Shown piece after piece: positions 10,960 through 51,600 of a stretch of 64,000 nucleotides of DNA. This DNA is from Balanoglossus misakiensis (Eukaryota > Animalia > Hemichordata): the NCBI GenBank assembly GCA_040954595.2, contig CM082584.2:5894110-5958109 (forward strand), in the 5' to 3' direction. The position numbers were made by a program, and so were the translations under genes. The notes under the pieces are model-generated. The model had not been told where the DNA came from. It ran no database searches and saw nothing but the letters and a program-made list of their open reading frames with translations. Numbering within the stretch: the stretch's first letter is position 1; the number at the start of each line of letters is the position of its first letter.

Positions 10960-11390
10960 ACACAAAACGGTACAATTAAGAAGCTGTGTCCGTACTTAAT
11001 GTCTGATGATCAATCCGCCCGCTCCTCAACGTCCACCTCACATCCCAGGCAAACTATGTCCCATTAATGAGGGAATTGTGAAATTCAAGGGGCAAAGTTA
11101 TATGATCCAGTATCTGCCAGCGAAGCCAATTAAATGGGGTTCAAGCTCTGGATCATCGCCTGCCCCCTTACCGGGTACTGCCTAAACATCGATCCATACA
11201 CCGGGAAGAAAGGTGGTCAAGTCGCCCAGAAAGGTCTGGGATATTCGGTTGTTTGGCAACTGTCGTGGATGTATCACAACACGAGCACGTTTTATTTTAT
11301 GATAATTTTTTGTTGTTGAAATTGGGTACCCTTTGCTGTAGTACAGTTCGCCCAAATCAAGTTGGTTTTCCTGTCGATTTCGAGAATCTG
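10960..11390 (+). pseudogene. Decayed piggyBac (PGBD/DDE_Tnp_1_7-like) transposase fragment
   Basis: Frameshifted EGIVKFKGQSYMIQYLPAKPIKW/GFKLWIIAC..TGYCLNIDPYTGK..LGYSVVWQL..VLFYDNF..GTLCCSTVRPN, a typical piggyBac catalytic core. Confidence 0.8.
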
Positions 11391-11444
11391 AAACTAGATT
11401 ACAGCATTGTTGTGTTTTCATCGACATTTCGTTGTAACACATAT

Positions 11445-11700
11445 GGTTCACATTGCATTTCCTGTCACAGGGATGACCAAGCGTGCAAACATGTTGCTGC
11501 CATGTTGTTTGTTTATGGTCTTTTGGTGAGCGACATCAGGACAGACACACTGTGGTTGGTACTGATGTTCAGTGCCAATGGGACCGACCCAAAAAGTCTG
11601 TGGTACCACAGCTTCTGGATGACATTGATGTCAGAACAAAGAGGTGCACTCAACTCGCACAACCGACAGTTGCTATTTGCCAGATGATCTTGAAAAAAGG
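11445..11700 (+). pseudogene. SWIM zinc-finger-like transposon fragment; partially duplicated at 16169-16380
   Basis: ACKHVAAMLF followed, after a frameshift, by TDVQCQWDRPKK. Bases 11511-11700 recur at 16169-16380. Confidence 0.55.
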
Positions 11701-13805: not shown

Positions 13806-14534
13806 TAAGCAGTTTATATTACATTGTAATGTTATATTGAAACTTTTTTGGTTGCATTTTTGTTGTTGTTGTTGTATTTGCAAGTTGCGAATACGGAAAA
13901 TTATATAATTTTTTGGTACTATTTTTCTTATTAAAATCAATATGACCAGTGGTTGTCGAGTTTTTGTGTTTTGACCAATTTCACATTTTCCCAGCTAATT
14001 TACATATTTTTGGCAATGACAACTTCATTTGAACAAACTCCCATCTACAATCCTGCCTGCATCTACACACCAAATATCGAGGTCTTTTGCGCTGCGGTTT
14101 TCAAGTTTTTGATGTGGACGGACATACAGACATACATACATCCATACATCCCATAAGGTCCCATGGTACATACTGAAGATGCTTAGGGAAGAACTTTTCA
14201 CTGAGGTGAATGGCAGACAGTTGTTGAACAGGGAATAGAAACATCAAACAAATACTGTTTAATCGTGTTTGATCATCACAAATGCCAAAAAAAAAAAAAA
14301 TTAAAATGGAACAACTGTACACATGCATTGTAAAATATGAGGGGAAAATCGAACATGATCCATCTGAGAAACATTCTTAGGCCTATCAGAGGCAGAAACC
14401 GTTCACACAGTTCATTACAGAAATGAAAAGACATCTCTTTCAGGAAATAGAAACTCTACTGGTCGAACACAAAAGTGCTTTCCAGAAACTATTCAGTCAA
14501 CTTTGCTGTCCACCTGATATTTCCTTCGTCCAGG

Positions 14535-16168
14535 ATGCTGTTACATGCATTTGGGCACAAATGGAACACATATTTACAACTTTTGTTTCCCTGCTTATAG
14601 ATGAAAAGAAAAAGCTGCTGGAACATCAAGATGAAATAGTAAAGGAATATTTATCCATGCTGCCATCATCAACAACGAAAACGACTGAAAGAAGCAAGAA
14701 ACAGGAAACAAGGAAGCGACTGAAATTTCCAAAAGAAGCCCCTGTTGTTAAGGTAATAAAGCTGATGTTTGTTGACACATAGTTTAATGGGTTGTCTTTA
14801 TTTGAAGGAAATATGTTTATTTGTCTAAAACAGCCACAGGTTATTGGAAGTGCCTAATATGGTCCAATTAATTCACTTTGTCATGCAAAGTGGATTTCAC
14901 TAAGTCTTATAAACGAACTGTTAAGCAAATTATGAGTGTATTTACTTTGTTGTTCTTATTTATCAACAGGAGAAGCCAATAAACTTGATGGAGGGGAGCC
15001 CACCTTCGGATGTGGAGTCAAGCCACCGGGCAACACCAGTGAGCCATGTGGGCAGCCCGGTGGTTTTGAATGTGCGGGGACAATGTTGTAGTAATAGGCG
15101 GCTGGAGGAAAAATTAGATAAGCTCATAAACTTGGTCGACAACATGTCCGCCATTTTAGGCAAATTTTTAGAAAATATGTCAGGCCAAATCAACCCAACC
15201 TGCGTTGAGGTTGATGATCAGGCAAATCATCAATATTTGCCTGATGAGGTCATTTTTGACGCACATAAAAAATCAGGGGCTGATAGCAGGAGTTTTACCA
15301 CAAGACTTAACCTCTTCACAGAAGAGGAGTGGAAAATAAATAATGTCAGTGAGACAAGAGGGAAAGTTAAACTCGATGAAAGTAGGATAGACTATATTAA
15401 ACGACTGGTGTTTAAATTTTATCCATGCCCAACTTCCATTAAGAGTAGCCAATGGGCTAACTGTATCAGAGGCAGCAACGAATCTCTAACTAAGTTCCAT
15501 GTTTAACATGTCTTGGCAAACTTGAATACAACAAGCCAATCAGCAGGGAATAACCTGGTTGTAACTGGAGAGATGCTAAAATGAACTTTTTGCTTACAAC
15601 CCTTTAATCAGATGCAGTTTTTCCACTCTGGTCAGTTTATCATTATCGTTATGCATGTTGCAGTTACCTATTTAGGGTGTTATGATTTTTTTATTCGAAA
15701 AAAACATTTATATGTGACTAGAAGAACACTAATTATAGTTTACTCTTTGGTCAGTGGTTGTGTCATGTACTTCCTGTATGTAGAGAGTGATACCTTGTTG
15801 TTAAAAATTACCAAATTTTGCTATGTGTCTGTAAAATGGGGTATTGCCATTGTGTAGTCGATAGGTTTTTTTTAATTTTTATATTTTACCTGTGTTCTGA
15901 TGACCTAAGTAAAACTATTGAATAATGTCAACCAATACACTTCTATATTTTATTTTATTTTCAGTTTCACATCCCACTCATCACCATAGCCAGCAACTCC
16001 ATCAGTCAACAGTTCCATAAACACAAGCGCAGATTTATCACCAGTGTCTTACACACCACCACAGCAACAGCCAGAAATAAATACAGCACAAACCCAACAG
16101 CCAGCATCACTACCAGTACAAACCCAACATCACTACCGTCACGCCACAGTCAACGGTCAGTAAGGAGG
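14535..16168 (+). repeat. Copy A of ~1.6-kb segmental duplication carrying a BEN-domain exon
   Basis: Near-identical to 17313-18872, as shown by the paired ORFs 14423/17339, 14985/17753 and 15612/18371. Confidence 0.9.
14970..15506 (+). CDS. Coiled-coil plus C-terminal BEN domain exon (possibly pseudogenic, transposon accessory gene)
   Basis: LEEKLDKLINLVDNM coiled coil, then LFTEEEW..NVSETRGKVKLDESRIDYIKRLVFKFYP..WANCIRGSNE, a BEN-domain pattern. An AG acceptor lies at ~14968. Confidence 0.6.
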   Translation, partial: EKPINLMEGSPPSDVESSHRATPVSHVGSPVVLNVRGQCCSNRRLEEKLDKLINLVDNMSAILGKFLENMSGQINPTCVEVDDQANHQYLPDEVIFDAHKKSGADSRSFTTRLNLFTEEEWKINNVSETRGKVKLDESRIDYIKRLVFKFYPCPTSIKSSQWANCIRGSNESLTKFHV

Positions 16169-16544
16169 GTTTATGGTCTTTTGGTGAGCGACATCAGGAC
16201 AGACACACTGTGGTTGGTACTGATGTTCAGTGCCAATGGGACCGACCCAAAAAGTCTGTGGTACCACAGCTCATGGATGACATTGATGTCAGAAAAAAGA
16301 GGAGCACTGAACTGATACAACCAACAGTTGCTATGTACAAGCCTGCAACAATGCCAGATGATCATGATCTTGAAAAAAAGGTAAGAATTAGGACCATTCA
16401 ACTTTACCCATACTATTGGATGTACGGTCAGTAACAGTGATGCTGAGCCCATGATCTCCACTAAGACATGTTGGCCACAATGAAGACTGCCTACTCGAAA
16501 ACGTTTGGAAAGTTGAGAGTATTGGCATTACCGACGAGTATATA

Positions 16545-16620
16545 ATAAGTATTGTCCTACTGAGGATAATCCAGCTGATATGCTGTCTCGCGGAATCCAG
16601 ATAGTTCAGCTCATCAATAA
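16545..16620 (+). mobile_element. Short Bel/Pao RNase H remnant
   Basis: KYCPTEDNPADMLSRGI, the same motif as YCPTGDNPADLLTRG in the intact element. Confidence 0.6.
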
Positions 16621-16879
16621 CAAAATGACAGGGACCACAGTAGTGTTGAAATCAGTAGAAGACAGCATATGTCACTGGTGCTCTAATGAAATTCATTGAG
16701 GACCAGGGACAAAGGAATGAGAGGGTAATCAATGCAGTCTTGACTTTAACGGAAAATGTCAACAAAGTCGTCGCTAAAGTAGAGGTCATGTTTGACAAGA
16801 TTTCAAACATGCCAAATACTGACACCTCCGTGCACTACAATTGGCGATCATTCAAGCAGCTTTGAAAACATGTTCAATG

Positions 16880-17140
16880 AAGACATTAGATTCAACTTGT
16901 CTGATAACAAGCTGCTTGAAATTACAACAACTTCCAATTTTACAGGCAAACTCATCTCCACAGAGCAAGAAAGACGCACTCTCTCAGGGTAAAGGGATGT
17001 TTGACCTCGAAAAACTAAAATTCATAAAAGAACAATATTCAGACACTTTCCAGCTACCGGGTACACCCCGTAAAGTTCACTTTTTTGGAAACAGTGTTTG
17101 GATGCTATACATGAGGTTAACCACCGGGGTATTGTGTTTT
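16880..17140 (+). pseudogene. Second, divergent decayed BEN-domain remnant
   Basis: NFTGK..(frameshift)..FDLEKLKFIKEQ..(frameshift)..FWKQCLDAIHEVNHR. Confidence 0.4.
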
Positions 17141-17312
17141 ACGAGACTTCATAATCAAATCACGTGCAATTCGATACGTCATGGCGGTACCTGTTAATTT
17201 ATATTCACACTTACCCCTAGCATTAAATTTTAATATTAAGATAAGTGAAAATCTTATATAATTGTACATAAGTAGCTTGTATAGTAATTATCAGTCAATA
17301 ATCTTTCGGTTC

Positions 17313-18872
17313 ATGCTGTTACATGCATTTGGGCACAAATGGAACACATATTTATAACTTTTGTTTCCCTGCTTATAGATGAAAAGAAAAAGTTGGTGGA
17401 CCACCAAGATGAATTGGTAAAAGAATATTTTCCGACACAGCCATCAGCAAGCCTGCTGCCATCATCAAGAAGCAAGAAACAAGAAACAAGGAAGCGTCTG
17501 AAATTTCCAAAAGAAGCCCCTGTTAAGGTAATAAAGCTGATGTTTGTAGACACGTTGTTACGTGGGGTGTCTTTATTTGAAGGAAATATGTGTACTTGTC
17601 TAAAACAGAGCACAGGTTATTTGAAGTGCCATGGAAGGACCTGGTCCAATTCATTCAATGCGGATTTCACTAAGTTTAACTGTTAAGCAAGTTACGATTA
17701 TGAGTGTATTCACTTTGTTGTTCTTATTTATCAACAGGAGAAGCCAATAAACTTGATGGAGGGGATCCCACCTTCGGATGTGGAGTCTAGCCACTGGGCA
17801 ACACCAGTGAGCCATGTGGGCAGCCCGGTGGTTTTGAATGTGCGGGGACAATGTTGTAGTAATAGGCGGCTGGAGGAAAAATTAGATAAGCTCATAAACT
17901 CGGTCGACAACATGTCTGCCATTTTAGGCAAATTTTTAGAAAATATGTCAGGCCAAATCAACCCAACCTGCGTTGAGGTTGATGATCAGGCAAATCATCA
18001 ATATTTGCCTGATGAGGTCATTTTTGACGCACATAAAAAATCAGGGGCTGATAGCAGGAGTTTTACCACAAGACTTAACAAGACTCAACCTATTCACAGA
18101 AGAGGAGTGGAAAATAAATACTGTCAGTGAGACAAGAGGGAAAGTTAAACTCGATGAAAGTAGGATAGACTATATTAAACGACTGGTGTTTAAATTTTAT
18201 CCGTAGCCAATGGGCGACTGTATCAGATGCATCAACGAATCTCTAACTAAGTTCCATGTTTAACGTGTCTTGGCAAACTTGAATAGTACAACAAACCAAT
18301 CAGCAGGGAATAACCTGGTTGTAACTGGAGAGATGCTAAATGAACTTTTTGCTTACAACCCTTTAATCAGATGCAGTTTTTCCACTCTGGTCAGTTTATC
18401 ATTATCGTTATGCATGTTGCAGTTACTTATTTAGGGTGTTATGATTTTTTTATTCGAAAAAAACATTTATATGTGACTAGAAGAACACAAATTATAGTTT
18501 ATTCTTTGGTCAGTGGTTGTGTCATGTACTTCCTGTATGTAGAGAGTGATACCTTGTTAAAAATTACCAAATTTTGCTATGTGTCTGTAAAATGGGGTAT
18601 TGCCATTGTGTAGTCGATTTAATTTTTATATTTTACCTGTGTTCTGATGACCTAAGTAAAACTATTGAATAATGTCAACCAATACACTTCTATATTTCAT
18701 TTTCTTTTCAGTTTCACATCCCACTCATCACCCATCACCCCAGCCAGCAACTCCATCAGTCAACAGTTCCATAAACACTAGTGCAGAACTATCACCAGTG
18801 TCTAACACACCACCACAAACCCAACAGCCAGCATCACTAACCGTCACGCCACAGTCAACGGTCAGTAAGGAG
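17313..18872 (+). repeat. Copy B of ~1.6-kb duplication; BEN exon frameshifted and truncated
   Basis: A short duplication (ACAAGACTTA ACAAGACTCA) at ~18070 shifts the frame, and a deletion creates a TAG at 18204-18206. Confidence 0.9.
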
Positions 18873-27134: not shown

Positions 27135-30100
27135 CTACAGTAAACCACATGCATTGCTTCTTCTCTGCTTTTGCCTCTTTGGTGACATTGCTTTCTGACT
27201 ATCGTCTGATTTCAGTTGTGAACTGCCTGCCCCAGTGTCTTCAACAGTTGTAGACTCATCACTTTCTTTCTGATCACGCATACTTGGGGAGCCCGTTGGT
27301 GAAGTCACACTGTCTCTGGACAAGTCTGATTTACCATCGAGGAGAAACTGGATCAGAAGAACATGAAAAGATACATTTTAAAAGCATGGAATTACCCTAT
27401 TGGTTCTACTTCTATGGGAGGGGGTAATATACAAACTGTGATCAACAGAACAGGTGGTGATCACTTCAACTGGCAATGGAGAGTACAGCAGACATGCAAG
27501 TACTAGAAAGTACAATGGTCCATGCGATGGATAAATTCTGTAATAACATTGGTGTTTACTGTATGTTGGATGTAAGACAAGGTCTGTACCCCTTTGAAGT
27601 GTATATGTAGGTCTGTTTATACAACCTCTCTCTAATCTATACTTTTGACTCATCTATTTGTGATGGTCTGCTGTATTTCGAGTTGATTTTTATTTCAATA
27701 ATTGATTGATTGATTGAGTGAGTGATTAATTGATTGGTTGGTTGGTTGGTTGATTGATTGATTGATTGAAATATAAGAATATCAATTACCTTCTCAGCTC
27801 TTGCAACAAACTCTGCATTTTGCATCTGCAAAATGTCATTTTTCATCTTGACTACATTATGTATAACAATGTTACCTCCCTTGTTGTCTTCATTCTTGTC
27901 ACTGAAAAGTAGAAACGTGATAATAGTATGAATTTAAGCATGGAATGGGTCCAGAAATGTAATTTTGGCACAAAAAATGTCTTTGCTGTTTTCCAAAATT
28001 TTCTCTTAGAAGTAGTGTTTTCCATACCAAGAATTCCAGAAACTGAAATTTCATGATTTTTAAAAGGCTCCTGATCAAAGTACCTCATTAACACTTGCCC
28101 AATGAAATCCCACTCTATGTAAATAACCACAGAAATAACCAGACAGAATTTCTTACCTGAAGTACATTCTCTCCAGTAATATGTCAGAAGCCCGGAACAA
28201 AGCAACAGATGCCTCTTCTGAAACACTGCTGGCAGTTTTCCCGTGGTCTTTCATCGATACGAGATGCAGGTTCAGCTGATCGCTCAGAATCTCTCTCCAC
28301 AGCCTGTCCTCCACACACACCACATAGGGAATCAAATGCAGGAACGTCGGTCTGGCTGGCAGTTTGCTCAACAGAATCGGGAAGACGACGGGCGACTGCT
28401 TGGTCTTTCTGTGCCTGGAGAGCGCGATCTGTAACTCTTCGTGTTGACTGACCGACTCCATGTAGGCAACGGACACTAGAGGCACGATGATCTTGGCGGC
28501 GTCCAACACCACGATCTGCTCGTGGTCCTCCGAAATGTCGTCATTTAACCTGAGCGAGGGCGCCCTCCGTTTCAGGATGTGCATCAGGAACCTGGCATAT
28601 TTGGCATCCTCTTTCGTGTAGCTGATGGCGATATCACAGACGCCGTCTCCAGATTGGCCATCTGTCGGGATGGACAGGCTATCTTTCACTTGCTCTTTGA
28701 CGTTGTACTTGCTTTTGTACAAAGCTGAGCGGTAGTCTTCAGTCAGCTGACCAATGTCAATGTTTTCATACATTTCGTCCTGGAAGAGAATGTAGCAAAA
28801 GTGTTATCATAAGGAAACTTCAATGAAATTTTAGTACGCTGTAAATTCCTCTTAGGAACTGGCTGTTTAACCCTTTCACTCCCAGTTCCCTCTTTAGAGA
28901 TCCAACCTTACCATAGAAAACAATGGGTTTGGACTGAACCATGGTGATGAAACGATTAAAGGGACAAAGTCTCTCTCTCGCTCCCCTTTTCCCATTAATT
29001 ATGTTTTTACTCATATATCTACAAGCAGCGTGGAAGGTGTGTGTGGTTGAACGTTGATTCACTATATATCCACATGAACATTAACATAAATGGTGTCTTG
29101 TATCAAACATAATTAATAGGAATAGGGCAGTGAGAGAGAGAGACTTTGTTCCTTTAAACTGACTGGGGTGCAGGCATTAGAAAACATTTCTGCCTTTAAG
29201 ACTATGTCATACCTGTATCTTCCTGAATATTGCATGGCCACTGTTGGATTTTCCTTTCAGCCAGTTTACAACTTGAGGACAAATGTCATCGACAACTTGA
29301 TGGTAATTTTTGCCGACTGCATCCACCATTTTGACAGCTGTGAACTCAGCAGTGATGTCTGCTAAATCTTCCATGCAGATTGTTATTAGCTGTAGGTCAC
29401 TGTTCTGTGGGTGTATAAGACAGAATTTCCATGATACATCACATAACAAAATTGGTATTAAACATATGTGGATTAACGAAGATGTATGAACGGTAAAATT
29501 TAAAGGGAAGCGGTCGTCGCGCTGTGTGGGTATGCCTCCCTTGATGAGAATAAGTCCTCCCTTACCAGCACAAACCTCACTGCAGTCACCACAACCTACA
29601 TGTATTAGGATCTTCAGTTGCAGTTGCCAGGTCTATGCTATGGTTGGCTGCTGCATACATTATAAGAATCATCTAATTTCAGGGGTTTGTTGATGAATGG
29701 TAATGTTTATAAACAAACAAGTGCGGCGCGATGACCCCTTCCCTTTAAAGTACTGTCATTTCTTTAAACGGCTGATTTTTCAATTCTCCTTTTTACCCAA
29801 TCTTTGCAAAGTGTCTGATTACAGTATTCTGTCAGTTCTATCATTAATTTTTTAATTACTAGCCAACTAAACTCACCTTACAGGAGTGTTTTGCCAATGC
29901 CAAGTTGTATTCCTCTTGACAAACAGCTGATTGTAAATAATCATTGGAGATACATGCTATCATACATCGACTGCCATCAATGGCTTGGTACAGTGTCTCT
30001 TGCCAGGCAGTGCCTATGGTATGTTCAGAAGATGACATAGATTAATATGCATATACAAAATTGACATTGTACTCAGTGATTGTAAGCATACACATACATC

Positions 30101-33100
30101 AATCAAGTGGAATCACTGGGAACTGACTACTGTATATGTATGCCATTGCCACAGTGAGACAAAACATAAAATGCACAGGGCAGTGTGCAGTAATCTTGTA
30201 ATATTTTGATTGGTCATACATGTATATCCTGTCTTTTTGCTCTTCAAACACGTGTACAATATAGGTGCAGAGGTGTTGTAATACATGTAAAGGTCTGCTG
30301 AGACACTGCACACTGACAAAAAATGTACCAATGCCTTTTTGGAGGGCTATGACTCAAAACTCAAATCTGATTGGTTAAGTGGAAATCATCACTTTGTGTG
30401 CACCTGGTTAGCATTACACTTTCAAGAGAAATTTGCTAAATAGAGAAAACTGGGGTAGCCTGCTTTACAGCCCAGCCATGTGGGTTTTTTTATTATCAAT
30501 AAACTGTGACAATTATTTATATATTTATCAGAAAATAGGAGGCTCAAAATAGGTAAGCCAGGATAATTTGTACAAAGAACATTACTATTTAAATTTTATT
30601 TAGGAAAGAATAATGTCATCATATATATGTACAACCAACCTGTTTTCAGCTCATCTGTATCAAAGAAAATCTTCAAATTAGGATCGAGGTCATTCAGTCT
30701 GTTCCTGATTTTCAGAACTTGCTGACTGTTCTTGTGAGAGTAGGAAATGAAGACGTCGTATTTCAATTCATCTTTTTGCTTTTTCTTTGTTTTCTTCACA
30801 GAAACCATGGAAACCTCCAGTGTCAAGGCAACCACGACTTGTTTACTTGCTGCTACGAGTTTGTCAACATCATGGTAACTACAACAACAGACAAAATGTG
30901 TAATAAATAGTCAATCATGAGAAGTAAAATAAAATTAAATACCCAAATTTTTGACAAGCAGTTGAAAAAAGGCATTAATTTATCATATATTTTTTACACT
31001 TGCATTGTACTTCATGAAAGGTTTTCCACATTTAAGCAACAGTATTTGGTTTTGTATAGTCAGCATTGTTATTGTAAAAAATTTGAATTAAGTCCGGACT
31101 AGAATTAATTCATCAACAATAACAATAACAGTTCTACACATACAGGGTGTGTTGACAAGCAGAATACTGGATATATTAGCTTGCTGTTTGGATTAAGGCA
31201 AGGAATTACTTAATGTATGCAAATGAAGGCTAAAATCCTTGGGTCCAATTGTTCATCTTACCTGCAATTGACATACTGCACAAGTCCCATGTATGTTGGT
31301 AAAAATTCAATCTGTTCCACATAGAATGGCGCCAAAAGATGTCTCTCTGTTTTGCGGTTAACACACAGTGCTATATTGTATTGCTCTGTACATCTGGCAG
31401 ACTCCAAGTACTTTGGACTTAAAACTGCAACAAAAGAAATTTATGTACAACAAAGAATAAATTTGCAGAAAAAAATCAGCATCTCTTGTTTCAACAGAGA
31501 TTCAATGCAAGAAGAAGCACATATATATATATGTACATGGTGACTGTATTTGTCATTTCAGCATTCTTGTCACAAAGTAGTAGAATTTGGGGGCATTGGT
31601 GTTTACCATACACGTACAGATGCATTCAGTTTTTACCTGGAATAATCTTTGCACATTTTATCATAATTTTGTAGATGCTATCCTGCCAGACTTCATTTTC
31701 ATCTAAATCTTGTTTCTCTGAGAATATCCTGACGTCGTTTTTCTCTTTTTTCAAAAATTCTTCAATCTGCTTGGCAACAAGAACGTCTTGCTCGCTGAAG
31801 GAAATGTAGACATCAAATTCCAATGTTGTCTCCTGCAATAAATATGTACAAAAGAAATCACAGATTACATATATGTGCTTTCCTACATAATGGTTAAGGC
31901 GTCCAGATCCAGGCATGAAAAGTATGTAACAAAATCGCTGACTGGCAACCTTATTTGATTGTATCACAACACAAATTAATGTGCTGCACCTGTACACAAT
32001 TGTACATTGTTCAATGCCTTACAATATACTAGTAATACACCCTCTACATTATCATCTGTGAGGACTATTATTGACAAAATATGTTGGTCACCATTGCTTT
32101 AGAATATGTGTAAGACAATACACTGACTAGAGGGGAGTGTTGGAAATGTTCTAATACTTTTCAGTACGGTAGAATTTTCACTGAGTCAGCAATTTGCTCC
32201 AAAGTCAGTTGTGTATGTAGGTTTCTGGCCATTTTCTGTACTCTTGTCCTTTGTGAATGAATGAATGAATTATATGATTCGTTTGGTTGGTTGTTTGTTT
32301 GTTTGTTCGTTTGTTTGTTCGTTGGTTCATTCATTCATTCATTCATTCATTCATTCATTCATTCATTCATTCATTCATTCATTCACACTAACCTCCTCTT
32401 CAGGTTCTGCTTCTTCATACTCTTTCTTCAACTCGCTGAACAAGTGCAGTGTATTTTTGAATTCATTTCCGAAGTTTGGCCTTGTATTCTCATCTTTCAC
32501 AAGCCGCGTGAAGAGGACAATTTTCAACACTCTCAGAGGGAGTCCCGCTTTCATCCAGTTCACAGCAGCTGTTACCATACTCTTCAACATCACAGTTTTA
32601 GAGTGACCCTGAAAAAAGACAAAAAATAATAATAAACTAAGTCCAGTGTTATGTTCATTGTCTAATTAAAGTTCTAATTCAACCGTGTATTCCATATCCT
32701 CATCACAGAACAATGTTTAGGTAGAGGACTATACCCAGAGGTAGTGTGTGGCTGTCGCATTCCAATGCTTAGCATGTAAATTTTTGAGAAACTATTTTAT
32801 ATTATGGAAAAAAGCTGCCAGGTGATCACAACTAGATAAATAAACCCTTGTGGCAAATATTTAAGACAGAAATCAAATTCCGTTGCTGTGTCAGGCCATG
32901 ACATATTGCCCTGTGTTACAAATCTACATGCATCTGTGCTCGCACTGGACACAGACCTGTAAACAAGCCCCTATACAATCCACATGTCAGCTTTCCTGTA
33001 TAAGAGGGTTGTGTCGAGGTTTGATTCAGCCATTTACTATTTCATTTTACATACTATCATAGTAATACCTGATCTCCTGTAGCTAACAGAGGTGTTATAA

Positions 33101-34063
33101 CACGCCCATCTTGGTTGTTTAGTATCGGTACTAAACATCTAAACACATCACTAACAAATTCAGCTGGATGACCAAGTCTTCTCCTGAAAATGAATTTAAA
33201 ATACAATAATATGTCACTCAAAGAAGAAAAACGTGATGTGTATAATCGGATCATGTTTTATCAAAGCCTGGTGGTAATAGAGGCTTGAAGCTTGTGCAAG
33301 CTAACACACTATCTTAGGAAATTTGAATTTAGGCAAAATACATGCATAGGCTGAAATTACACACGTGTCACTATTAACAGTGTACATACTGTCTGTCACC
33401 TTATCCATTATAGAATTTTAATTGTTATAGAAACCTACAGACAACTTTTGTGACAGCAGCACCCTGCAGGCCAGAGTATTGTGTGAGAATGCAACTTACC
33501 GATTGCTTTCAAAGCAAAGAAGCCGACGGAATGGATACTGATCAGGTAGCCTGCGTGACCACCAACAACAGTACAGTCGTCTCAAATCCTCCTCCTTATC
33601 CTTAGATAACTCACGAACGCTCAGACCCAAGTTCATTTGCAGTGCGCCAATCATTGAAGTCGGAGTAGCTGTGTAGTCACCTGAAGCATTAAGTAAAACG
33701 AAAACCCTGAGGAACACATTCTGTTACATGTATCACACAATTACTAAATCCTCAGTATGCACTAGCTGATGCATCCATGTTGTAACTAAGCATTGACACA
33801 TAAATGTTTACATTGACAACGCAGTCTTCAAAGTAGGCTGTCTTTTATCATTGGTTAAAATTCATGTATCTGTGTCCTTTCCAAGACGCATTCTCGTCAA
33901 TGACGATCGCACATTGACACCTACCTGGGAACGCGGACACAAACAAGACATCGACCCCTTCCGTTTTCTTCAGCTTGGTGATATCTCCAAAACACAGGTC
34001 GATTCTACATTCGCCAGTCTGGGTTTGAACTCGTATCGAGTCTTCTGTGTATAAAGCAGACAT
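27135..34063 (-). CDS. Macrodomain-like + three TIR domains + polybasic CaaX tail, ~841 aa, 12 coding exons
   Basis: Phase-consistent GT-AG exons: 34063-33925, 33680-33500, 33183-33069, 32608-32393, 31832-31637, 31424-31262, 30878-30640, 30013-29877, 29404-29213, 28779-28157, 27901-27790, 27347-27135 (2526 nt). The N-terminal IDLCFGDITKL..VDVLFVSAFP..ITPLLATGDQG..LKIVLF is macro-like. TIR box-1 motifs are FDVYISFSEQD, YDVFISYSHKN and CDIAISYTKED. The C-terminus is KRQKQRRSNACGLL*. Confidence 0.85.
27700..27770. repeat. (ATTG/GTTG)n microsatellite, intronic
   Basis: Direct reading of the sequence. Confidence 0.85.
28960..29153. mobile_element. TTAA-flanked MITE (Kolobok-like), intronic
   Basis: TTAA|AGGGACAAAGTCTCTCTCTC ... 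GAGAGAGAGACTTTGTTCCT|TTAA. Confidence 0.75.
29504..29744. mobile_element. TTAA-flanked MITE (Kolobok-like), intronic
   Basis: TTAA|AGGGAAGCGGTCGTCGCGC ... GCGCGATGACCCCTTCCCT|TTAA. Confidence 0.75.
32280..32385. repeat. (GTTT)n/(ATTC)n compound microsatellite, intronic
   Basis: Direct reading of the sequence. Confidence 0.9.
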
Positions 34064-42600: not shown

Positions 42601-45600
42601 CAAATACATCACTTTCAGAGACCTGTCATATTATTTGTGCTTCATTCGAACTTTGACTTACATTCCACGGGGCATTACTGTCAATTGTACGCCAGAGAAA
42701 TCTTTGGTACCTACCAACTATGACAGGGACAGCGCGAACAATACACCAAGTCTGCTGAGGTTTCAAGCACACAGTGCAGTAAATAAACATGTTGTTGGTC
42801 GACTGTATAAGAACAATTCTGAGGCCCATTGCATTTGTGATAAAGTAACCACCAGACACCTTTGATCAATTTGATGGCGTCATCATCGGTTTTCATCATC
42901 ACTACTGTGATGTGGAACATTACAGCAAAGCATTTAATTGCGTCGCTAGAAGTGGGTGGATTTTGGTCTTTTGAATGAATACACAAGGCTTTTGCGCATG
43001 TCCATGGATGTCAAACCTAATCACATCTGTTTCATATCACATAACTTTATATGGAATCATATTATACTGATAGACATAGAAGGTCTGACATTTAATGATA
43101 CGTTTTAAACTATATGAATCATAAATTAAAATGGCGAATTAAAATCCCAGGGTAGAATAACAGCGGCACGTGTTGTGGATATAGTCACCATGGGAACCCT
43201 CAAACTTACGTTTCCTTTTTGTTTTTCAGTGACATGTCGTCTGACCTTGATCAACTCTTCGCCCATCATCTCAAGGACAAGTGAAACACACCTGTATTGC
43301 TTGGACACCAGTGGTGTGATTCCCGTGGCCGATTTGAGCATCAAACGAGTCTTGGACACCGGCAACGGCGCCGATATTCCAACACCGGCTGTTATCAACA
43401 ACGACTGGCTTGAAGCCGTTTGGGGTCGAGAGACCGGCAGTGCGAGATACGGGGTGTTTTTCTGTGCTGAGGATAATTCAGATGATAAAGTGATCACTTC
43501 CAAGATTTTTAGATCGGGTAGGTCGAAAATTATCTGCCTGTCTGCGTGCCTGTCTGTCCTTGGGAAAATTGTTTCACATATGCCTAGTGTATTTTGATTG
43601 CAAAACATCATATCACAAAAATGCATGCAAAACAAGAAAGATACAGCGAATGGGCCTTAATGCATTTGTGCGATCAAGACATATTCTAAGAATTACTGAA
43701 TTGGTATTATATTGAGAACTACCAAACAAGGTGTATGTTTCCACGTAGTTTAGTTGATACCAGTATCGAAAAGGACAAGCAAATTACCAAAACCAGGTTC
43801 CAAATTGGTTTTAAATAGTTCCAGTGATGTTTTAATTTACTGCGATGACATTTCTTCGCACTTTTCTTGGTAAACAGCTTGTATTTCTAGAAGCTAAATT
43901 CGCATAAAACTGTCGCATGTGACAATTTCGGGCTGGTATTAAAGTTGCCTTCATAGATCCACGGTTTTCGTATCTTGAACACAGTACGTCACACGTGATG
44001 GTCTTTGGGCATAGAGTCGAATACAGCAGGTCGAACATATTTCAATACACAACAGTGACACAGAGCCTGTCACTATTTTACGTACAGGTATACGAGTCTG
44101 TGAAATGTGAGGCATTACATGCATGGTTGGCTTGTGGTCTGTCGCTATTATTGTAAGCTTATGCATGAAAAAAAAACATGTTTTTGCATTGACACGAGTT
44201 TATCATTTTCATGTTCAGTAGATGTTGCTCCCGGTGTCTTCTCACCCCGCGTCCTCTCAGTGTCGGTTAGCAGCGGCGACGACCTCACGATTGAGATGTC
44301 GCGCGAGAAGCAAATATCCGTCGGTGTCACCATCGTCTGGCGACACAACGGCCAAATATTGAACATTCCCGCCCCGTCGTCCGCAGAACCGTTGGCCGTT
44401 CAAACCTACCATTTTGTCTTGCGGAATGTTTCAAAGGCGGACGGGGGCATTTATGAAATTCATCCGTCCGATAACCGAACACTCGGAGCAATGACCAGGG
44501 TAATCGTCAGAGGTAAGGGAAAGACAGATTTTGTATTGACTTTTATTCCATTGCAGGTTGAACGTCACTATAATTTCAGACTTGGTTTGCAAAAAACTGG
44601 GTGTTTCATCGTGCCTAATAGGCCGAATAAGTAGTTGTAATGCACTGAAGATAAATATTGACTAAGTGGCCAAGTAATTTACTTTCTGTCACATTTTTAT
44701 TGACTGAAAACGAACCGAGGATATATGTTCTCTAAGTTTACTTATTTATCGCCGACACATACAGGTAACTGTAGAAAGATTTGCATGTGCTTTGAGATAC
44801 CAGATCGCTCCCAGCATTATGTAAACCTTACAGCATATCTCAAGTTTAAATCTCATCTTGATCGTAAGATCGTTACATAGTGACTTCGGGTACTATCAAA
44901 AAGCTCTGTACTCACTGTAAGATTTCATATTCAATCGTGTGGTCTGTTTGTATTTCGATCTTAGGGTGCCGATTTGGACGCTGGAATCCACCAGAATGTG
45001 ATAAAATCTGCCCGACTTGCCAAAATGGCGGAATTTGTGATGATGCCAATGGCAACTGTATTTGTCCTCCTGGTTTCATGGGGACCACGTGTTCTGTTGG
45101 TGAGTATTATTTATGACTTTACGTTGCGACCATATAGGATAGTGCAAATACGTGTAAATAAAATACAGTTCCTGGAAAAAGAGGAAGTCGCAGTATGGTC
45201 CGTGGGTGATCCGTGCCCCAAATTTCCCTCCTTGGAAGGTTTGGAATATCAGTTACTCAGGACCAATTTTGACCGCGGGAAATTCACGTCATATATTCCA
45301 GGAATTCTGTCCCGATGTCGGAAATGTTCCGTATCGTGTGGTGAACTTTTAGGAATAACAATACCATAAACTTGGTCGTATATGTTCGTTACATTTTCAT
45401 TTCCTTAAATATTTGCATCATCCAGCCTGTGGAGCAAATAAATACGGCGAGACCTGTGACCATGAGTGTGACGCAGATGGTTGCGGATACAGTCAGTTCT
45501 GCCTTCCGGATCCTTATGGATGTGCGTGTGCCACTGGTTGGAAAGGAAGTCAGTGTAACCATGGTAAATAATTATGCAATTAAACTTTTAGCTAATTGAG

Positions 45601-48600
45601 GATGTAGGTAGTATTAATCGTACATTTAGTAAGAAGTGGGATTGACTTATACCAGAAAGCTCGAAATTGAAACTGATTGTCTATGACATGCAATCGGCAG
45701 ACAAAATTACTTCTGCATTAGTATTGGTGGTGCATATGATGTTGTCAAACTATGGTATATTATTAAACTGTTCATCAACTTGTTGTTCATACGAGAAGAA
45801 TTTTGCTATTTGTATTTATGTGCGAAAAGGCATTCGCAAACAGTACATTGTATATAGTGGACGGAGAACTCTAAACCTCACTTTAACCTTGTAGTCAGGG
45901 AAATTATCGCATCTGTTGAGGGGTATTATTTCATCCACTGTTTTCCACAGCTTGTGATGTAGGCACGTATGGGCCCGACTGCAAACTCACCTGCGATTGC
46001 CAAAATGGAGGAATCTGTGATCGATATCGAGGATGTGTGTGCACGGACGGCTGGTCTGGTATGACGTGTGAATCACCGCGTAAGTCGACTCTTCCTCATT
46101 GCCATAACTTCTTTGCCAGTCAAGCGATATTCTGGCAGGAGGCTTTTTTCATGTAATTGAAAAACATTTTAAGGGACTTTATCAATACCCATCCGAAGAC
46201 GGTATCGAGCTTGCGTCACTGTGCGGAGAAGTTCCAAGTTTACTTCATTTCAGATGCTAAAACGTAGAAACACGGTTGACATCAAGAACAGCTGCATACT
46301 TCGGTTCACCTACATGTATGGGGATCGCCAAAATACACTGAACAAAAGTGTACATTTTTGGCAACAGAGGGGCGCGGTGAATGTGTACAATACGTTGTCT
46401 AATCCAGTCTTGTATTCTTCATTTTTAAAATTAACTATTGGCATATTTACTATGGTACTGATATGCAACCTCCCTTCTGCAGAGCTAGAACCACCGGTTC
46501 CACTGAACTCACCCACCATGGTTGCATCCGGTTCCAACAGCCTGACGATCGATCCCAACACCGAGCCGTACTCAGGCTCTGGGCCCATCGAGGCCGCCAC
46601 CGTGGTCTTCAAGAAGACTGCCGACAGCGTTTGGGTGGAGAGAGCCCTCCCCGTCAGCAATTTCACTTTCTACGTCTTGCGGGGATTGGACCACGACGTG
46701 GAATACGAGATCAAGATCCGCCTGACGGGAACCGGCGGTAATGGCGAGGACGGACCTAAACTGATCGCGTCCACAACTGCACCGCAGTGTCAGGGTAAGA
46801 TCTCCAATGAGTTGAATAGGATAGCGGATGGAAAAAATGTCTCTGAAGAACAAATCTGTAATATTGCTGTAAAGTATAGAACCAGTCGTGAAAACTGCCG
46901 GTTTTCGTTGTGATCTTCCATCTTTTGCTAGACGACGCATTCAGATCCATTGAAAAAACATGTTCTGTACATGAAAGGACTGTATGTATATCATTGGGTA
47001 ACGCTTCTACCTACATGTACGTCACCTTTTGTGAAAATTTTAAGAAAATAACACCACGTGTTTTCTCTCGAAATTCACAAAACCATTATGACATGATTAA
47101 ACCATCACTGATCATGCTGATAAGTTTCATACTGCTTGAGTCGTGGTTGATATGTAACGACATTTTCTCCTCTCTACATCACAGCCCTGACAGAGTCTCC
47201 CGAACTGACCCTAACTGTCCTGGGATCGAGGTCCATCAACGTCACGTGGCAGAAGATCGAGAGTATGGGCGTCAGAGGCTACGAGGTTGCTTACAAGGAA
47301 GATGGAGGCCACATGTTCTTCCGAGAAATCGACCGCGCTGAACAGACTTGGTTCTTATTGGAAGGTCTGAGTCCGTACACGACATACATGATCGGTGTTG
47401 CAGAAATCAATTGCGCCGGCGAGGGGCCTACATCTCCGTTAATGAGTGTAACCACACGGGAGGATGGTGAGTACCAGCCGAGACAATTAAAATATTTAAA
47501 TTAAAGAGGATTTTGAAAGTATGTTGGATGATTGTTTTGATAGACTTTTCACTTGTTATCAATGCTATTCTCAGTTTTGATTATTTGGAGTCCGACAGAA
47601 AATCAAGACACGCGTAACAAAACGAGAAAACGTCAATCTAAATCTTTCGTACAGTCAAAATGCCACTGACTTTGTTAAATGTTTTTTTTGCTAATTTTCG
47701 AGTTTTTCTTGTCAACGGCCACAGCAGTACTGTTCTTTCGAGCTCGTTTTATGCAAACAGTCCTCATATAATTGATTGTCCGGAAAAATGAGTTACTTTA
47801 ATATTTCCAGCAATGTCAGAAGTATGACATCTCCAAATCATAGAGAACGTCTCATGTAACTGCTGTACTTGCGTATCTCAATGCAATATTTTCTTCTATT
47901 CAACAGCTCCAGGACCAGTCAGAAACCTTCGTTTATACCCACATTCTTCGACAAGAATTCTGGCCACATGGAGCCCACCTTCACAGGCAAATGGTGACAT
48001 CAGACGGTATGATTTGACCGTCTACGAGAATGGCTTACTGTTGAGAGATCGAGTGGCCCGCTCCACGACCACCACGAATTATGTTTTGAGCGGTCTCCGT
48101 CCGTACACAAATTATCGAGTGGTCGTGCAGGCCTACACCATCAAGACTGGTGAAAGCGCCGACAAAGAAATCCGCACCCCTCAAGACGGTTAGTCTATTT
48201 GTAATCTTCCGACTTTTGGAGATTTTTACAAGATTATGACACTTTCTCTAAGTTGAAGCGTCTCAGATTAGAAACCGTCTTAAAAAATCGTGTGTGGACG
48301 GTGTAAGAGGTCCTGAAACGGCTCAGATTTGAGACGGCTTTGCTGGCCAGACCTGAGCCGGTGTCTATGGGACTGAGCCTCAGCGCCTATACATAAATTT
48401 TGAGTGTGTGGACGCAAGCGACTCAAAGGATTAATGCTCTGTGTTTACCATAGGCAAATAGTGTCTCAAATTTTTCCCTGTCTGAACCTGGTACAATGCA
48501 AAAGACTAAAAGATTTTGCGTACGGTCATATTTTACAGCACCTGACGGTCCACCGACTTCCATCGTCGCCAGTGACGTCACCAGCACTACAATCACATTC

Positions 48601-51600
48601 ACGTGGGAGCAACCAGAAGAAAGACGTCGCAACGGCGTAATTACGAGGTACGAGTACATTTTCAGGAATGCCGTGGACGGCATGGACCGGAGAACGTTCT
48701 CCACAAGATATACTTCTGCAACCTTCGATGCCCTGTTACCGAGTACTTTGTACTCGTTCCAGTTAAGAGCTTATACCGACGAGGGACCGGGGCCTTACAG
48801 CGAAGAAGTTAGGGCAGTGACGGAAACAGGTAAGGGAACGAGTATACAGTTAACGACTATGCGCTGAGGAAAACTTTCATAAGAGCCTCACGAGGCAAGA
48901 TACAAATCCAGGGAACTTCATGTTCCAAGTGACAAGAATTAGCGAGTTTAATCCCCTTTTCTGTCAAGCATAACAAAGAAATCCTTTATCAATTAATTTC
49001 GATTCAATACGGTTTTTGCAAGTGACAGAGATTCAGACAGAGATCCAGACATTATTAGTCACATCTCAAACAAAAATATTGGTTCTTATTACTTTAATAA
49101 TCTTTATTTCTAGCGAGGGTGACAGGACCGGATGTGAAGGGCGATCCTACAACCCTGTCAGCCCGTACGAGTGGTGAGTACAATACTTTCCCTTTGCTTA
49201 ACTCTTCCTCTCTTGTTTTTCCGTTACTTCAATCTTTGCACTTGTTTTTGAACTTGTGTGTTTCAGTTTACTCTATGATTATGAATTTGTATTTTATTTT
49301 TCTCTTCTACTGCCCGAACGATTATTTCCTCGTCTGCGGGCGCCCTTATCAATAACAAGCCTCCTATTCAAATACTCGTTATCCGTTTTTTACCCTGAAA
49401 ATGTATCCAACACTCTTTTCTCGACCTCCATCTTTATGAATGTTCGTCAAATCGTTTTGCTCAGCCATTTTGCGAGTGCCAACGAGCAAACCTACAACTG
49501 TGTCAACAGCATACATCACTCAAAGCGACCGAACAACGGTATCAACCGTCCAAACAATTGGATCAGGTAGGCTTTGGCACGACGAGCAAGGTTATGAAAA
49601 AAACGTCTGTTGCATAACTACATGTACTCACCCCCACTAATCGATAGAATGGAATTGTCCTCAGCTAACGATTGTATTGCGTCACTTTTCCCTCGTTGAG
49701 CACGCGCTCACATCACGTTCCCAACATTCTGTTTAAATGACCCAATCTTGCGTGCAGAATTCAATTTTCGCACTAACATGTCTACAACTCTGTTTTCCTA
49801 CTCTGACATGCAACGCATGGAATGTAAATTTGCAAGCAACGAAATATGAAACAAGACGACAGCGTTGAAATTTGATTTACATGGGTGATTTTTAGATTCT
49901 TGTGTGTAAGCTCGGGACCATAGCGTTCATACGGCAGTCTTTAGATAAGTCTATACGAGGTCATCACTGTACAGTGAGTGACACACGAGTTGAGTTTAAG
50001 TAAACCGCCTGTCCATCTGTTCCCGATATCACAGTCAAATGGGCTTCTTTATCCCTTAAAAACTAAAACGCATTCCATATGCATGAAACATTTGCGTCCT
50101 CCCCAACCGACACATTAATATATCCTTGCCAAGCATACCGTATGTGTTACACTAATGTGTTTCGTGAAAGTAAAGACTATCAGGGGGTATATTTAAAAGA
50201 AAAAAATGAGGGGGAAGAGATTCATAGGTGTTCATGTAAATAGCTGTGAACGGTAGAGAATATTTCAGGCTTTTTTGTATGACCGGGGTCTTGCTGAACA
50301 TTTCGATATTAATTACTTATAGGAATCCATATAGGATTGACGGTTTGCACATAATTTTGAAATACACAATACGGACGTATTGTTATCGATTTGGTGGTAA
50401 TTTCTCTCTTCTCAGAGCCGGACCCACCAAAGGGGACCGTAGTAAAGGGAATAAAGACAGAAGTACCTTACGGTATTGCGACGGACGACGTGCAGACAAC
50501 AAAGGACGCGCCGCCGACCAAACAGATCCCGGCAGGCAGTGGCGAATTGAGCGGCTCTGTTACCTCCGCTGTGGTCATGGTGATTGGCATCATATGCGGT
50601 GTCGTGTTGATATTGCTACTGGCATGCGCAGTCTGCTTCATGATCATTCGGAGCAAGAAGAAGAAGCGGAAGGCGGCGAGAGTAGCGTCAGAGCCTCCAA
50701 TGCGCATGAGTGAGGTGAGGGGAAACAATTCCGATCAATATCCTCGCAATTCCACGAAAGAAACCCGGTGCTGGTACCAGTCAATTTCTATAGGCTAGAT
50801 GTTTGCAATCGGATAACATGGAGACCAGTTCAGTAGTGTCTACCTTGTGTTTTCAAATTGTTGGTGTGACGTCATGCATGTTTCAGCGTTACATACAACA
50901 TGCAACCCTTTTTACAGAAAACACACATTTTATTTGGTTCTAGGATGTTTACAAGCACAAATGCAAAAGTATGGTTGTCTGGTCTTGAGATAAGACTCAA
51001 AAATGGTAAACTCACGGTCTGCCGAAGTGACGGCTAGAGAATACTAAGTACTGTATTTTAAAATGTGAACATTGGACGTAATAAGAAAGATAACGTTAAT
51101 ACCAATATGTTTGTAACTTTTGAAATGGAAGTTCGAGTTAAAGCAGTCACCATCCGTCTTAGTTCACGGTTTTCACTGAAAGTTCACATTTTCGTTTGTA
51201 ACCACGACAGCTTCAGAGACAAGAGTCGGAGAACTTCCACAACGACTATGGAAGCAACCCATCAGCTCACCCGCCTATGCAAAGCGTCATATCCTTGGAC
51301 GGTTCAGCGATCCTCGTACCGGCACACCTGGACTTTTGGCGTATTCCTTGGGAGAAAATCATCTTCGAAGACAGGATTCTTGCGGAGGGCAACTTTGGCA
51401 GAGTGATGAAGGCGGACATCAAGAAAGACGACAATAATGTGATCGAGGCTGCAGTCAAAGTCCTTAAAGGTACTAGCAAATGCACGCCATGTCTTACAAT
51501 AATTTTGCGGCCCGACGCTTCTTAACGACCAACACTTCCAACTTCAGGTACATGTTGAGCATCTGCGAATGTTGATTAACGCTTCCTTATCTGTAAGTTT

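Follow-up and report, generated by a model that had tools for sequence, protein, structure and literature searches.

TIR-STING and TIR-SAVED proteins are nucleotide-gated TIR effectors. Type II Thoeris consists of ThsA, an effector with transmembrane and macro parts, and a separate TIR protein, ThsB (PMC11204291, 10.1101/2024.01.03.573942); statements on this and other cited work apply to the parts of each paper compared here. In animals, many non-TLR TIR proteins made cyclic ADP-ribose (cADPR) in E. coli, most of those tested without depleting NAD+, and the active-site Glu is described as essential for NAD+ processing; the control of these TIRs was not shown in the survey (10.64898/2026.04.20.719644). 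We analysed a stretch of 64,000 nucleotides (the window) from the hemichordate Balanoglossus misakiensis (GCA_040954595.2, contig CM082584.2, positions 5,894,110 to 5,958,109 of the forward strand). It contains a gene for a protein with a predicted N-terminal macro domain, a candidate built-in switch, followed by three TIR domains and a C-terminal CaaX motif. The macro-TIR family to which this protein belongs is real and conserved, a new combination of known parts, and apparently uncharacterised.

A preliminary description of the sequence had proposed a clean 12-exon open reading frame (ORF) with a GDIT motif, an ITPLLATGDQG motif and three TIR domains. The gene lies on the minus strand (Table 1), all 11 introns have GT-AG boundaries, the spliced frame is open throughout, and the spliced product contains GDIT at residue 26, ITPLLATGDQG at residue 136 and the three TIRs. 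Only the acceptor of exon 9 needed refinement: two in-frame acceptors lie 15 nt apart, at 29404 and 29389, and the upstream one adds five residues that match the Ptychodera flava orthologue. The 836-amino-acid (aa) form was therefore dropped in favour of the 841-aa form. The spliced product shares 630 identical residues (75% identity) with this orthologue (P0003, XP_070564247.1, 859 aa) over all 12 exons, and every exon junction falls within aligned sequence; the next nearest relatives are proteins from Saccoglossus and Glandiceps. In unspliced genomic fragments from other animals, the matches begin at residue 47 or 145, or end at 145. Residues 47 and 145 are intron sites in the window gene, so these fragments share its splice points. 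A 925-aa relative with the macro domain, three TIRs and CaaX motif comes from one uninterrupted ORF on a contig of 2,980 bases; this contig is likely a transcript that spans the entire architecture. Judged by homology, on which the splicing is based, the gene is real and its exon set is not a product of chance.

The fold of the N-terminal domain was assessed with models of P0003 and of a bacterial family member, P0054. In the AlphaFold model of P0003 (48-row alignment, mean predicted local distance difference test score (pLDDT) 81.8), this domain matched macroH2A1.1 in Foldseek (E 8.6e-6, template modelling (TM) score 0.72 by target) and gave a macro match in VIA with a Z of 17.1 and a root-mean-square deviation of 2.9 over 182 aligned residues (model range 3-211). 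The P0054 model (pLDDT 92.2) gave macro matches with Z up to 17.5 against 48,161 chains, and an ESM Atlas model of a Saccoglossus orthologue resembled PARP and macroH2A macro domains with a TM score of about 0.7. By sequence, the family profile matched PARP14 (E 4e-7) and Af1521 (E 1e-4), and its GD motif and PLLATGDQG loop aligned with theirs, in agreement with the earlier suggestion that ITPLLATGDQG corresponds to the PAISTG diphosphate loop of macro domains. Pfam, NCBIfam and PADLOC put no name on the domain, with weak Macro matches in only 2 of 25 members. The macro fold previously proposed for the first ~215 residues is accordingly what the models predict for residues 1-212.

NAAN and GGG are the catalytic loops of MacroD-type hydrolases. 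Both are absent from the window protein, as had been noted before, and VSAFPGDY (at residue 42) and TSMIGAL occupy their places. However, a non-catalytic nature of the domain is not established by this absence, because the domain keeps invariant polar residues of its own. E104 and W86 were found in 50/50 animal rows and in 140/140 unselected representatives (68 genome loci had been chosen by a pattern containing CFE and were left out of the E104 count). G26 and D27 are kept in 49/49 animal rows and G143 in 48/50, and D38, S43, Y49, D78 and G143 are nearly invariant across the family. Such a conserved pocket suggests ligand binding or catalysis.

The three TIR domains differ in their active sites. 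Pfam TIR_2 was matched by single exons of the window gene, and three TIR stretches were found in full-length P0003. In TIR2, all 42 animal copies have the BB-loop Gly and the Trp, Ser, Cys and Glu, and 38-41 of them have F-x-S-Y and the beta-B Asp; the single TIR of the prokaryotic relatives has the same pattern (61-64 of 64, with Glu in 63/64). In TIR1, the position of the catalytic Glu holds Gln in 38, Leu in 4, Lys in 1 and Glu in 1 of 44 animal copies. TIR3 keeps the Glu in 39/41 copies, lacks the Trp and has a BB-loop stretch of 5-7 residues instead of 13 in 38/41. TIR1, TIR2 and TIR3 form separate clades across cnidarian, lophotrochozoan and ambulacrarian rows (support by the approximate likelihood-ratio test, SH-aLRT, of 99, 98 and 100; 138 columns). 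By these signatures, TIR2 alone keeps the full active-site pattern and looks catalytic, and the sites of TIR1 and TIR3 appear degenerate. The preliminary description had TIR NADase activity coupled with an ADP-ribose (ADPR)-type macro domain in one chain; the single chain with a macro domain and three TIRs stands, but catalysis looks limited to TIR2.

Other domains were not found in these proteins. LRR, Ig, ARM, SAM and death domains had no match in P0003 at E<=1e-4, and TIR families were the sole domain matches in six full-length members (P0003, P0022, P0026, P0035, P0039 and P0042). The most hydrophobic 19-mer of the window protein (Kyte-Doolittle 2.0) lies inside TIR3 and is not a transmembrane helix. 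These results agree with the earlier view that the protein has none of these domains, no transmembrane segment and no place in a canonical animal TIR class (TLR, IL-1R, MyD88 or SARM1).

The window protein ends in a Lys/Arg stretch followed by CGLL, and CaaL motifs are geranylgeranylated. A Cys at position -4 is present in 26 of 47 animal homologues (rows that include isoforms and paralogues) and in 19 of the 36 with three TIRs, compared with 0-2 rows at the other positions of the last 12. Among controls, it was present in 2/74 prokaryotic loci and 1/146 representatives. The CaaX motif is conserved in the animal family, and the protein may be prenylated and located at membranes. Neither this motif nor the difference between the three TIR active sites had been noted in the preliminary description.

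A search with the macro region returned 47 long and 26 short proteins. The named animal sources were Nematostella, gastropods, Lingula, a bryozoan, echinoderms and hemichordates; in this word-based search, vertebrates, arthropods and eukaryotes other than animals were absent from the names. With the macro part of P0054, 871 clusters at 50% identity were matched, of which 150 were listed. A Pfam scan of 103 of these 150 proteins, without most of the short fragments and without some of the ~340-aa proteins, found TIR_2 in 89/103. By a local profile, a TIR followed the macro domain in 106 of the 107 representatives with more than 100 residues there. The macro-TIR unit is also appended to kinase, Hsp70, type VI secretion system (T6SS) sheath, glycosyltransferase, NUDIX, FHA and CHAT domains. 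In GTDB, 123 candidate stretches yielded 74 loci from Planctomycetota, Chloroflexota, Cyanobacteriota, Myxococcota, Bacteroidota and Pseudomonadota and from three archaea. The prokaryotic form is a single ~340-aa macro-TIR gene, the best copies being 40-50% identical to the window macro domain, and a TIR is fused in 63 of the 68 loci with a whole macro domain. Bacterial VSAFPxDY macro-TIR proteins, which the preliminary description had mentioned as unverified, were found across many phyla. A more distant macro copy occurs in 133 Ralstonia megaplasmids, and the one examined is an ADP-ribosyltransferase fusion (R. solanacearum, L001:7995-9185, plus strand, downstream of a haemagglutinin gene). 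The macro domain is further paired with a DUF4145 cluster, by structure only. Neither annotated phages nor viral contigs (0/89 candidate stretches) yielded a relative.

Several variants of the prokaryotic form were observed. In P0141, P0155, P0214, P0098 and L056:20-1075, the macro-TIR unit stands behind VipA/VipB domains of the T6SS sheath, once with kinase and FHA domains; these fusions are possible decoy-type sensors. Haliangium-type proteins (L050:7806-9431, L057:7971-9422, P0118, P0178 and P0195) have a degenerate TIR, with Asp for Glu in 4/5, and carry a ~140-aa helical tail without a family name. Candidatus Uabimicrobium has tandem macro-TIR paralogues (L037:8001-10418 and L049:7947-10425).

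Animal macro domains, sampled from sea anemone through molluscs to echinoderms, group in a single clade, within which cnidarian, lophotrochozoan and ambulacrarian sequences make up subgroups. The support was SH-aLRT 99 with 108 rows, 100 with 262 rows (three unnamed rows inside the clade) and 100/100 with 49 rows under a mixture model. The trees were midpoint-rooted, and transfer from prokaryotes to animals is the direction suggested because the prokaryotic diversity is far greater; the family may thus have entered early animals from prokaryotes. Haliangium was considered as the donor and not accepted, with support of 93, 83 and 88/78 across trees and a TIR tree that does not repeat the grouping. 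A macro-TIR gene in a Heimdallarchaeota bin (L032:5985-7274) has a TIR that groups with animal TIR2 (SH-aLRT 93) and an odd composition.

We propose that the animal protein is a membrane-anchored, nucleotide-gated, NAD+-cleaving TIR immune effector, a reading to which we give about an even chance. On binding an ADP-ribose-type signal, the macro domain would activate TIR2, which would act as an NADase or cADPR cyclase. TIR1 and TIR3 would be fixed non-catalytic partners that template or restrain the assembly of TIR2, and prenylation at the CaaX motif would hold the protein at membranes; we also suppose an immune role. The polarity would be that of TIR-STING and TIR-SAVED, in which a sensor domain gates the TIR enzyme, and opposite to that of type II Thoeris. 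A sensor role of the macro domain is suggested because its nucleotide pocket is kept and its NAD+-using effectors (TIR or ADP-ribosyltransferase) are interchangeable; with different bacterial effectors on the same domain, an input switch fits better than a receiver of the product of its own TIR. A broader scenario, which we hold only tentatively and consider somewhat less probable than its opposite, is that animals acquired, in one event before the cnidarian-bilaterian split, an undescribed one-gene ADP-ribose-sensing immune switch that is widespread in planctomycetes, Chloroflexota, cyanobacteria and myxobacteria. There the TIR would have been tripled into one enzyme and two pseudo-enzymes and a lipid anchor gained, and ADP-ribose-type danger signals would still fire a membrane NADase.

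Several observations weigh against the proposed effector and its origin. Both Saccoglossus gene models (P0001 and P0002) lack the exon with the TIR2 core and catalytic residue, likely owing to an assembly or annotation gap, and the CaaX Cys is missing in 21/47 animal homologues (17/36 with three TIRs), by truncation or true loss. The Haliangium group is a weakly supported sister of the animals (88/78), and a topology that unites animals with the Heimdallarchaeota copy was not rejected (approximately unbiased test, p-AU 0.244). Non-animal eukaryotes were judged from 150 of the 871 matches. In prokaryotes, the macro-TIR genes mostly stand alone among ordinary genes. The defence-island context that the preliminary description had proposed to test was found only weakly: specific PADLOC matches among the 135 of 140 adjacent ORFs scanned number four (PDC-S14, ZacA, PDC-M08B and DpdE), in 3/74 loci and with no matched background. 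Finally, TPR-S genes adjoin macro-TIR in seven related Bacteroidota loci, five of which also have a CapV-like patatin, and these neighbours fit a signal-making TIR better than an effector.

The last point bears on the most probable alternative, the version of the preliminary description, in which cADPR or an ADPR conjugate made by TIR2 serves a separate receptor and the macro domain binds this product as feedback. The Bacteroidota neighbours are reminiscent of the type VIII Thoeris effectors, CMP-hydrolase + TPR proteins that respond to cADPR (10.64898/2025.12.03.692087), and the cADPR made without NAD+ depletion by most tested non-TLR animal TIRs also fits (10.64898/2026.04.20.719644). However, the seven TPR-S loci are one related clade, the other 67/74 loci have no common partner, the macro family also goes with a non-TIR effector, and ThsA macro domains bound neither 2'- nor 3'-cADPR (PMC11204291). 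We consider a signal generator unlikely. An enzymatic macro domain is less probable still. This domain would be a novel kind of enzyme, which either hydrolyses derivatives of ADP-ribose or takes ADP-ribose off proteins and so serves as a safety catch on the linked TIR or ADP-ribosyltransferase. The family-specific polar set D38, S43, Y49, K75, D78, E104 and Q145, invariant from bacteria to animals, would suit such an enzyme, and the NUDIX fusions and one ADP-ribosylglycohydrolase neighbour (L040) suggest ADPR turnover, but the MacroD loops are absent and the top structural matches include the non-catalytic readers macroH2A1.1 and PARP9/14 macro 2. A membrane-tethered scaffold that tunes TLR/MyD88 signalling through TIR-TIR contacts, with vestigial catalysis, is the least probable of the three, since each active-site position of TIR2 is retained in 41-42 of the 42 copies, which range from cnidarians to hemichordates, and the macro pocket does not vary, even though two of the three TIRs are degenerate, amphioxus bbtTIRA and bbtTIRC are inhibitory adaptors (PMC6043800) and ecTIR-DC proteins were proposed as adaptors (PMC6321704).

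Among 852 neighbouring ORFs of the prokaryotic macro-TIR genes, neither a general partner gene nor a cyclase partner gene was seen. PADLOC matched eight adjacent proteins at E<=1e-20, and the four beyond those named above are generic kinases or methyltransferases. NCBIfam assigned the neighbours mostly to housekeeping genes, with four transposases, and Pfam on hand-picked neighbours found single STAND-SIR2, AlbA_2, MUG113, non-specific endonuclease and ParE proteins. A TIR was present in 12 neighbours at 11 loci, two of them tandem paralogues and one the broken half of a macro-TIR gene itself. This neighbourhood, which has no background control, suggests a defence role for the prokaryotic genes. 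A patatin, a TPR-S, a macro-TIR, a second TIR and a second TPR-S gene lie together in Bacteroidota (L052:5357-13710, plus strand; also L058, L062, L069 and L068), and may together form a multi-gene system for TIR signalling. In an environmental Ferruginibacter bin, a gene resembling subclass B3 metallo-beta-lactamases (L055:3789-4673, plus strand) adjoins macro-TIR. Within the window itself, four further features were recorded (Table 1), of which the peptidase frame resembles FAM111-type proteases and the repeated frame pair is likely a duplicated mobile element.

Table 1. Coordinates of the macro-TIR gene, its parts and other features in the 64,000-nucleotide window.
Feature	Position	Strand	Basis
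Whole gene, 841 aa, 12 exons: macro-like domain, TIR1, TIR2, TIR3, disordered tail, CaaX	27135..34063	-	Splicing and homology to P0003
Predicted divergent macrodomain, aa 1-212, without Pfam coverage	32410..34063	-	Foldseek, VIA, profile match to PARP14
Exon 1, aa 1-46: ATG, GDIT adenine-binding motif (D27 at 33985), VSAFP	33925..34063	-	Start agrees with P0001 and P0003
Exon 2, aa 47-106: Y49, K75, D78, W86, invariant LCFE (E104 at 33510)	33500..33680	-	Conservation count
Exon 3, aa 107-145: ITPLLATGDQ diphosphate loop	33069..33183	-	Profile alignment
Exon 4, aa 146-217: end of macro domain, linker	32393..32608	-	AlphaFold model of P0003, splicing
Exon 5, aa 218-282: TIR1, first half	31637..31832	-	Pfam TIR_2
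Exon 6, aa 283-336: TIR1, second half; Gln297 (31383) at catalytic Glu position	31262..31424	-	Pfam TIR_2, alignment
Exon 7, aa 337-416: end of TIR1, start of TIR2 (YDVFISY, BB loop)	30640..30878	-	Pfam, splicing
Exon 8, aa 417-462: TIR2 core, Trp and predicted catalytic Glu451 (29912)	29877..30013	-	Pfam TIR_2, E 2.9e-9
Exon 9, aa 463-526: end of TIR2; second in-frame acceptor 29389	29213..29404	-	Splicing, homology
Exon 10, aa 527-733: linker and TIR3 (Glu641 kept, 28437; BB loop shortened)	28157..28779	-	Pfam TIR_2, E 8.4e-8
Exon 11, aa 734-771: helix after TIR3	27790..27901	-	AlphaFold model of P0003
Exon 12: low-complexity tail, polybasic stretch, stop codon	27135..27347	-	pLDDT<50 at P0003 781-853
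C-terminal CaaX motif CGLL, predicted geranylgeranyl anchor	27138..27149	-	Cys at -4 in 26/47 animal homologues
328-codon open frame, trypsin-like peptidase domain	5933-6919	-	PF13365, E 2e-8
Open-frame pair in two similar copies, 14381-15506 and 17288-18130; repeated stretch also at 11106-11687 and 15926-16315	14381-18130	+	
Tie-like receptor exons; hydrophobic segment near 50361-50798	43130-50798	+	Ig_Tie2_1 and fibronectin III repeats
Exon of secretin/adhesion-family seven-transmembrane receptor	61393-61812	-	PF00002

A full-text literature search, which did not extend to Gerdol 2017 or to Burroughs 2015 and Burroughs and Aravind 2020, two papers that may concern the bacterial form, returned no description of a macro-TIR fusion. 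None is described in the parts compared of PMC9503650, PMC8195603, PMC7159879, PMC9334734, PMC6043800 and PMC13142454, and the word 'macro' is absent from the main text of the animal TIR survey (10.64898/2026.04.20.719644). In the parts compared, papers by Aravind list Macro and TIR among conflict domains that occur together. The macrodomain of the family was overlooked by annotation pipelines, and a systematic Thoeris screen dropped stand-alone TIR genes, so that bacterial macro-TIR genes would have been skipped (10.64898/2025.12.03.692087). The ~340-aa bacterial version is small enough for direct assay in E. coli. If the proposed gating is true, a TIR effector gated by a macrodomain would be described for the first time, and ADP-ribosylation would be tied directly to TIR signalling in animals. 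If the protein is active, one more immune module shared by bacteria and animals would be added, together with a new subfamily of macrodomains that has an invariant pocket of its own.

The preliminary description had compared the window protein with type II Thoeris. The likeness is loose. It holds insofar as both systems unite, in one functional unit with predicted membrane association, the fold of a TIR NADase and a macro domain without the MacroD catalytic loop. However, type II Thoeris has two genes, with two N-terminal transmembrane helices, a C-terminal macro domain and a pore-forming effector, whereas the window protein is one chain with an N-terminal macro domain, a TIR of the TIR_2 type, no transmembrane helices, no separate TIR gene and no such effector. 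ThsA_Macro (PF20016) had no match in 25 macro-only members at E<=0.1 or in P0001 and P0002 at E<=1. An ESM feature score of 0.82 for ThsA_Macro at rank 20 is a lead only, and the top structural matches were classical, ADPR-binding-type macros and TIRs, ThsA macro structures not being among the 50 matches listed. By its domain order, lack of transmembrane helices, fused TIR and lack of a ThsA_Macro match, the window protein is not a type II Thoeris protein.

The readers macroH2A1.1, PARP9, PARP14 and Af1521 share with the window family the fold (Z 16-17 over ~180 aligned residues), the GD motif and the diphosphate loop. They differ in having 10-20% identity and histone or PARP partners instead of a TIR. 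NAAN/GGG and IHAV are canonical macro motifs, and SAFPxDY and LCFE take their place in the macro-TIR family. SARM1 and Dictyostelium TirC are, similarly, eukaryotic TIR NADases with bacterial affinity that are regulated in the full-length protein, but the window protein has no ARM or SAM domain and an unrelated regulatory domain; TirC also entered without its regulatory domain (PMC13142454), whereas macro and TIR occur together on both the bacterial and the animal sides. The ecTIR-DC families, compared through Fig. S1 of PMC6321704 only, are likewise multi-TIR proteins that invertebrates have and vertebrates lack. Their member ecTIR-DC 8 from Trichoplax is 1,082 aa long and was assigned two TIRs and nothing else, and the part compared contains no macro domain, catalytic analysis, CaaX motif or bacterial link (PMC6321704). 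The animal macro-TIR family may already have been listed among the ecTIR-DC groups (Gerdol 2017), without its macro domain.

TIR-STING and TIR-SAVED likewise have a nucleotide-binding domain and a catalytic TIR in one chain, in bacteria and, for TIR-STING, also in invertebrates, and their structures (PDB 6wt7 and 7qqk) were among the structural matches of the bacterial P0054 model. Unlike these proteins, the window family would use a macro fold as its sensor, and its animal copies carry three TIRs of apparently fixed roles and a CaaX motif.

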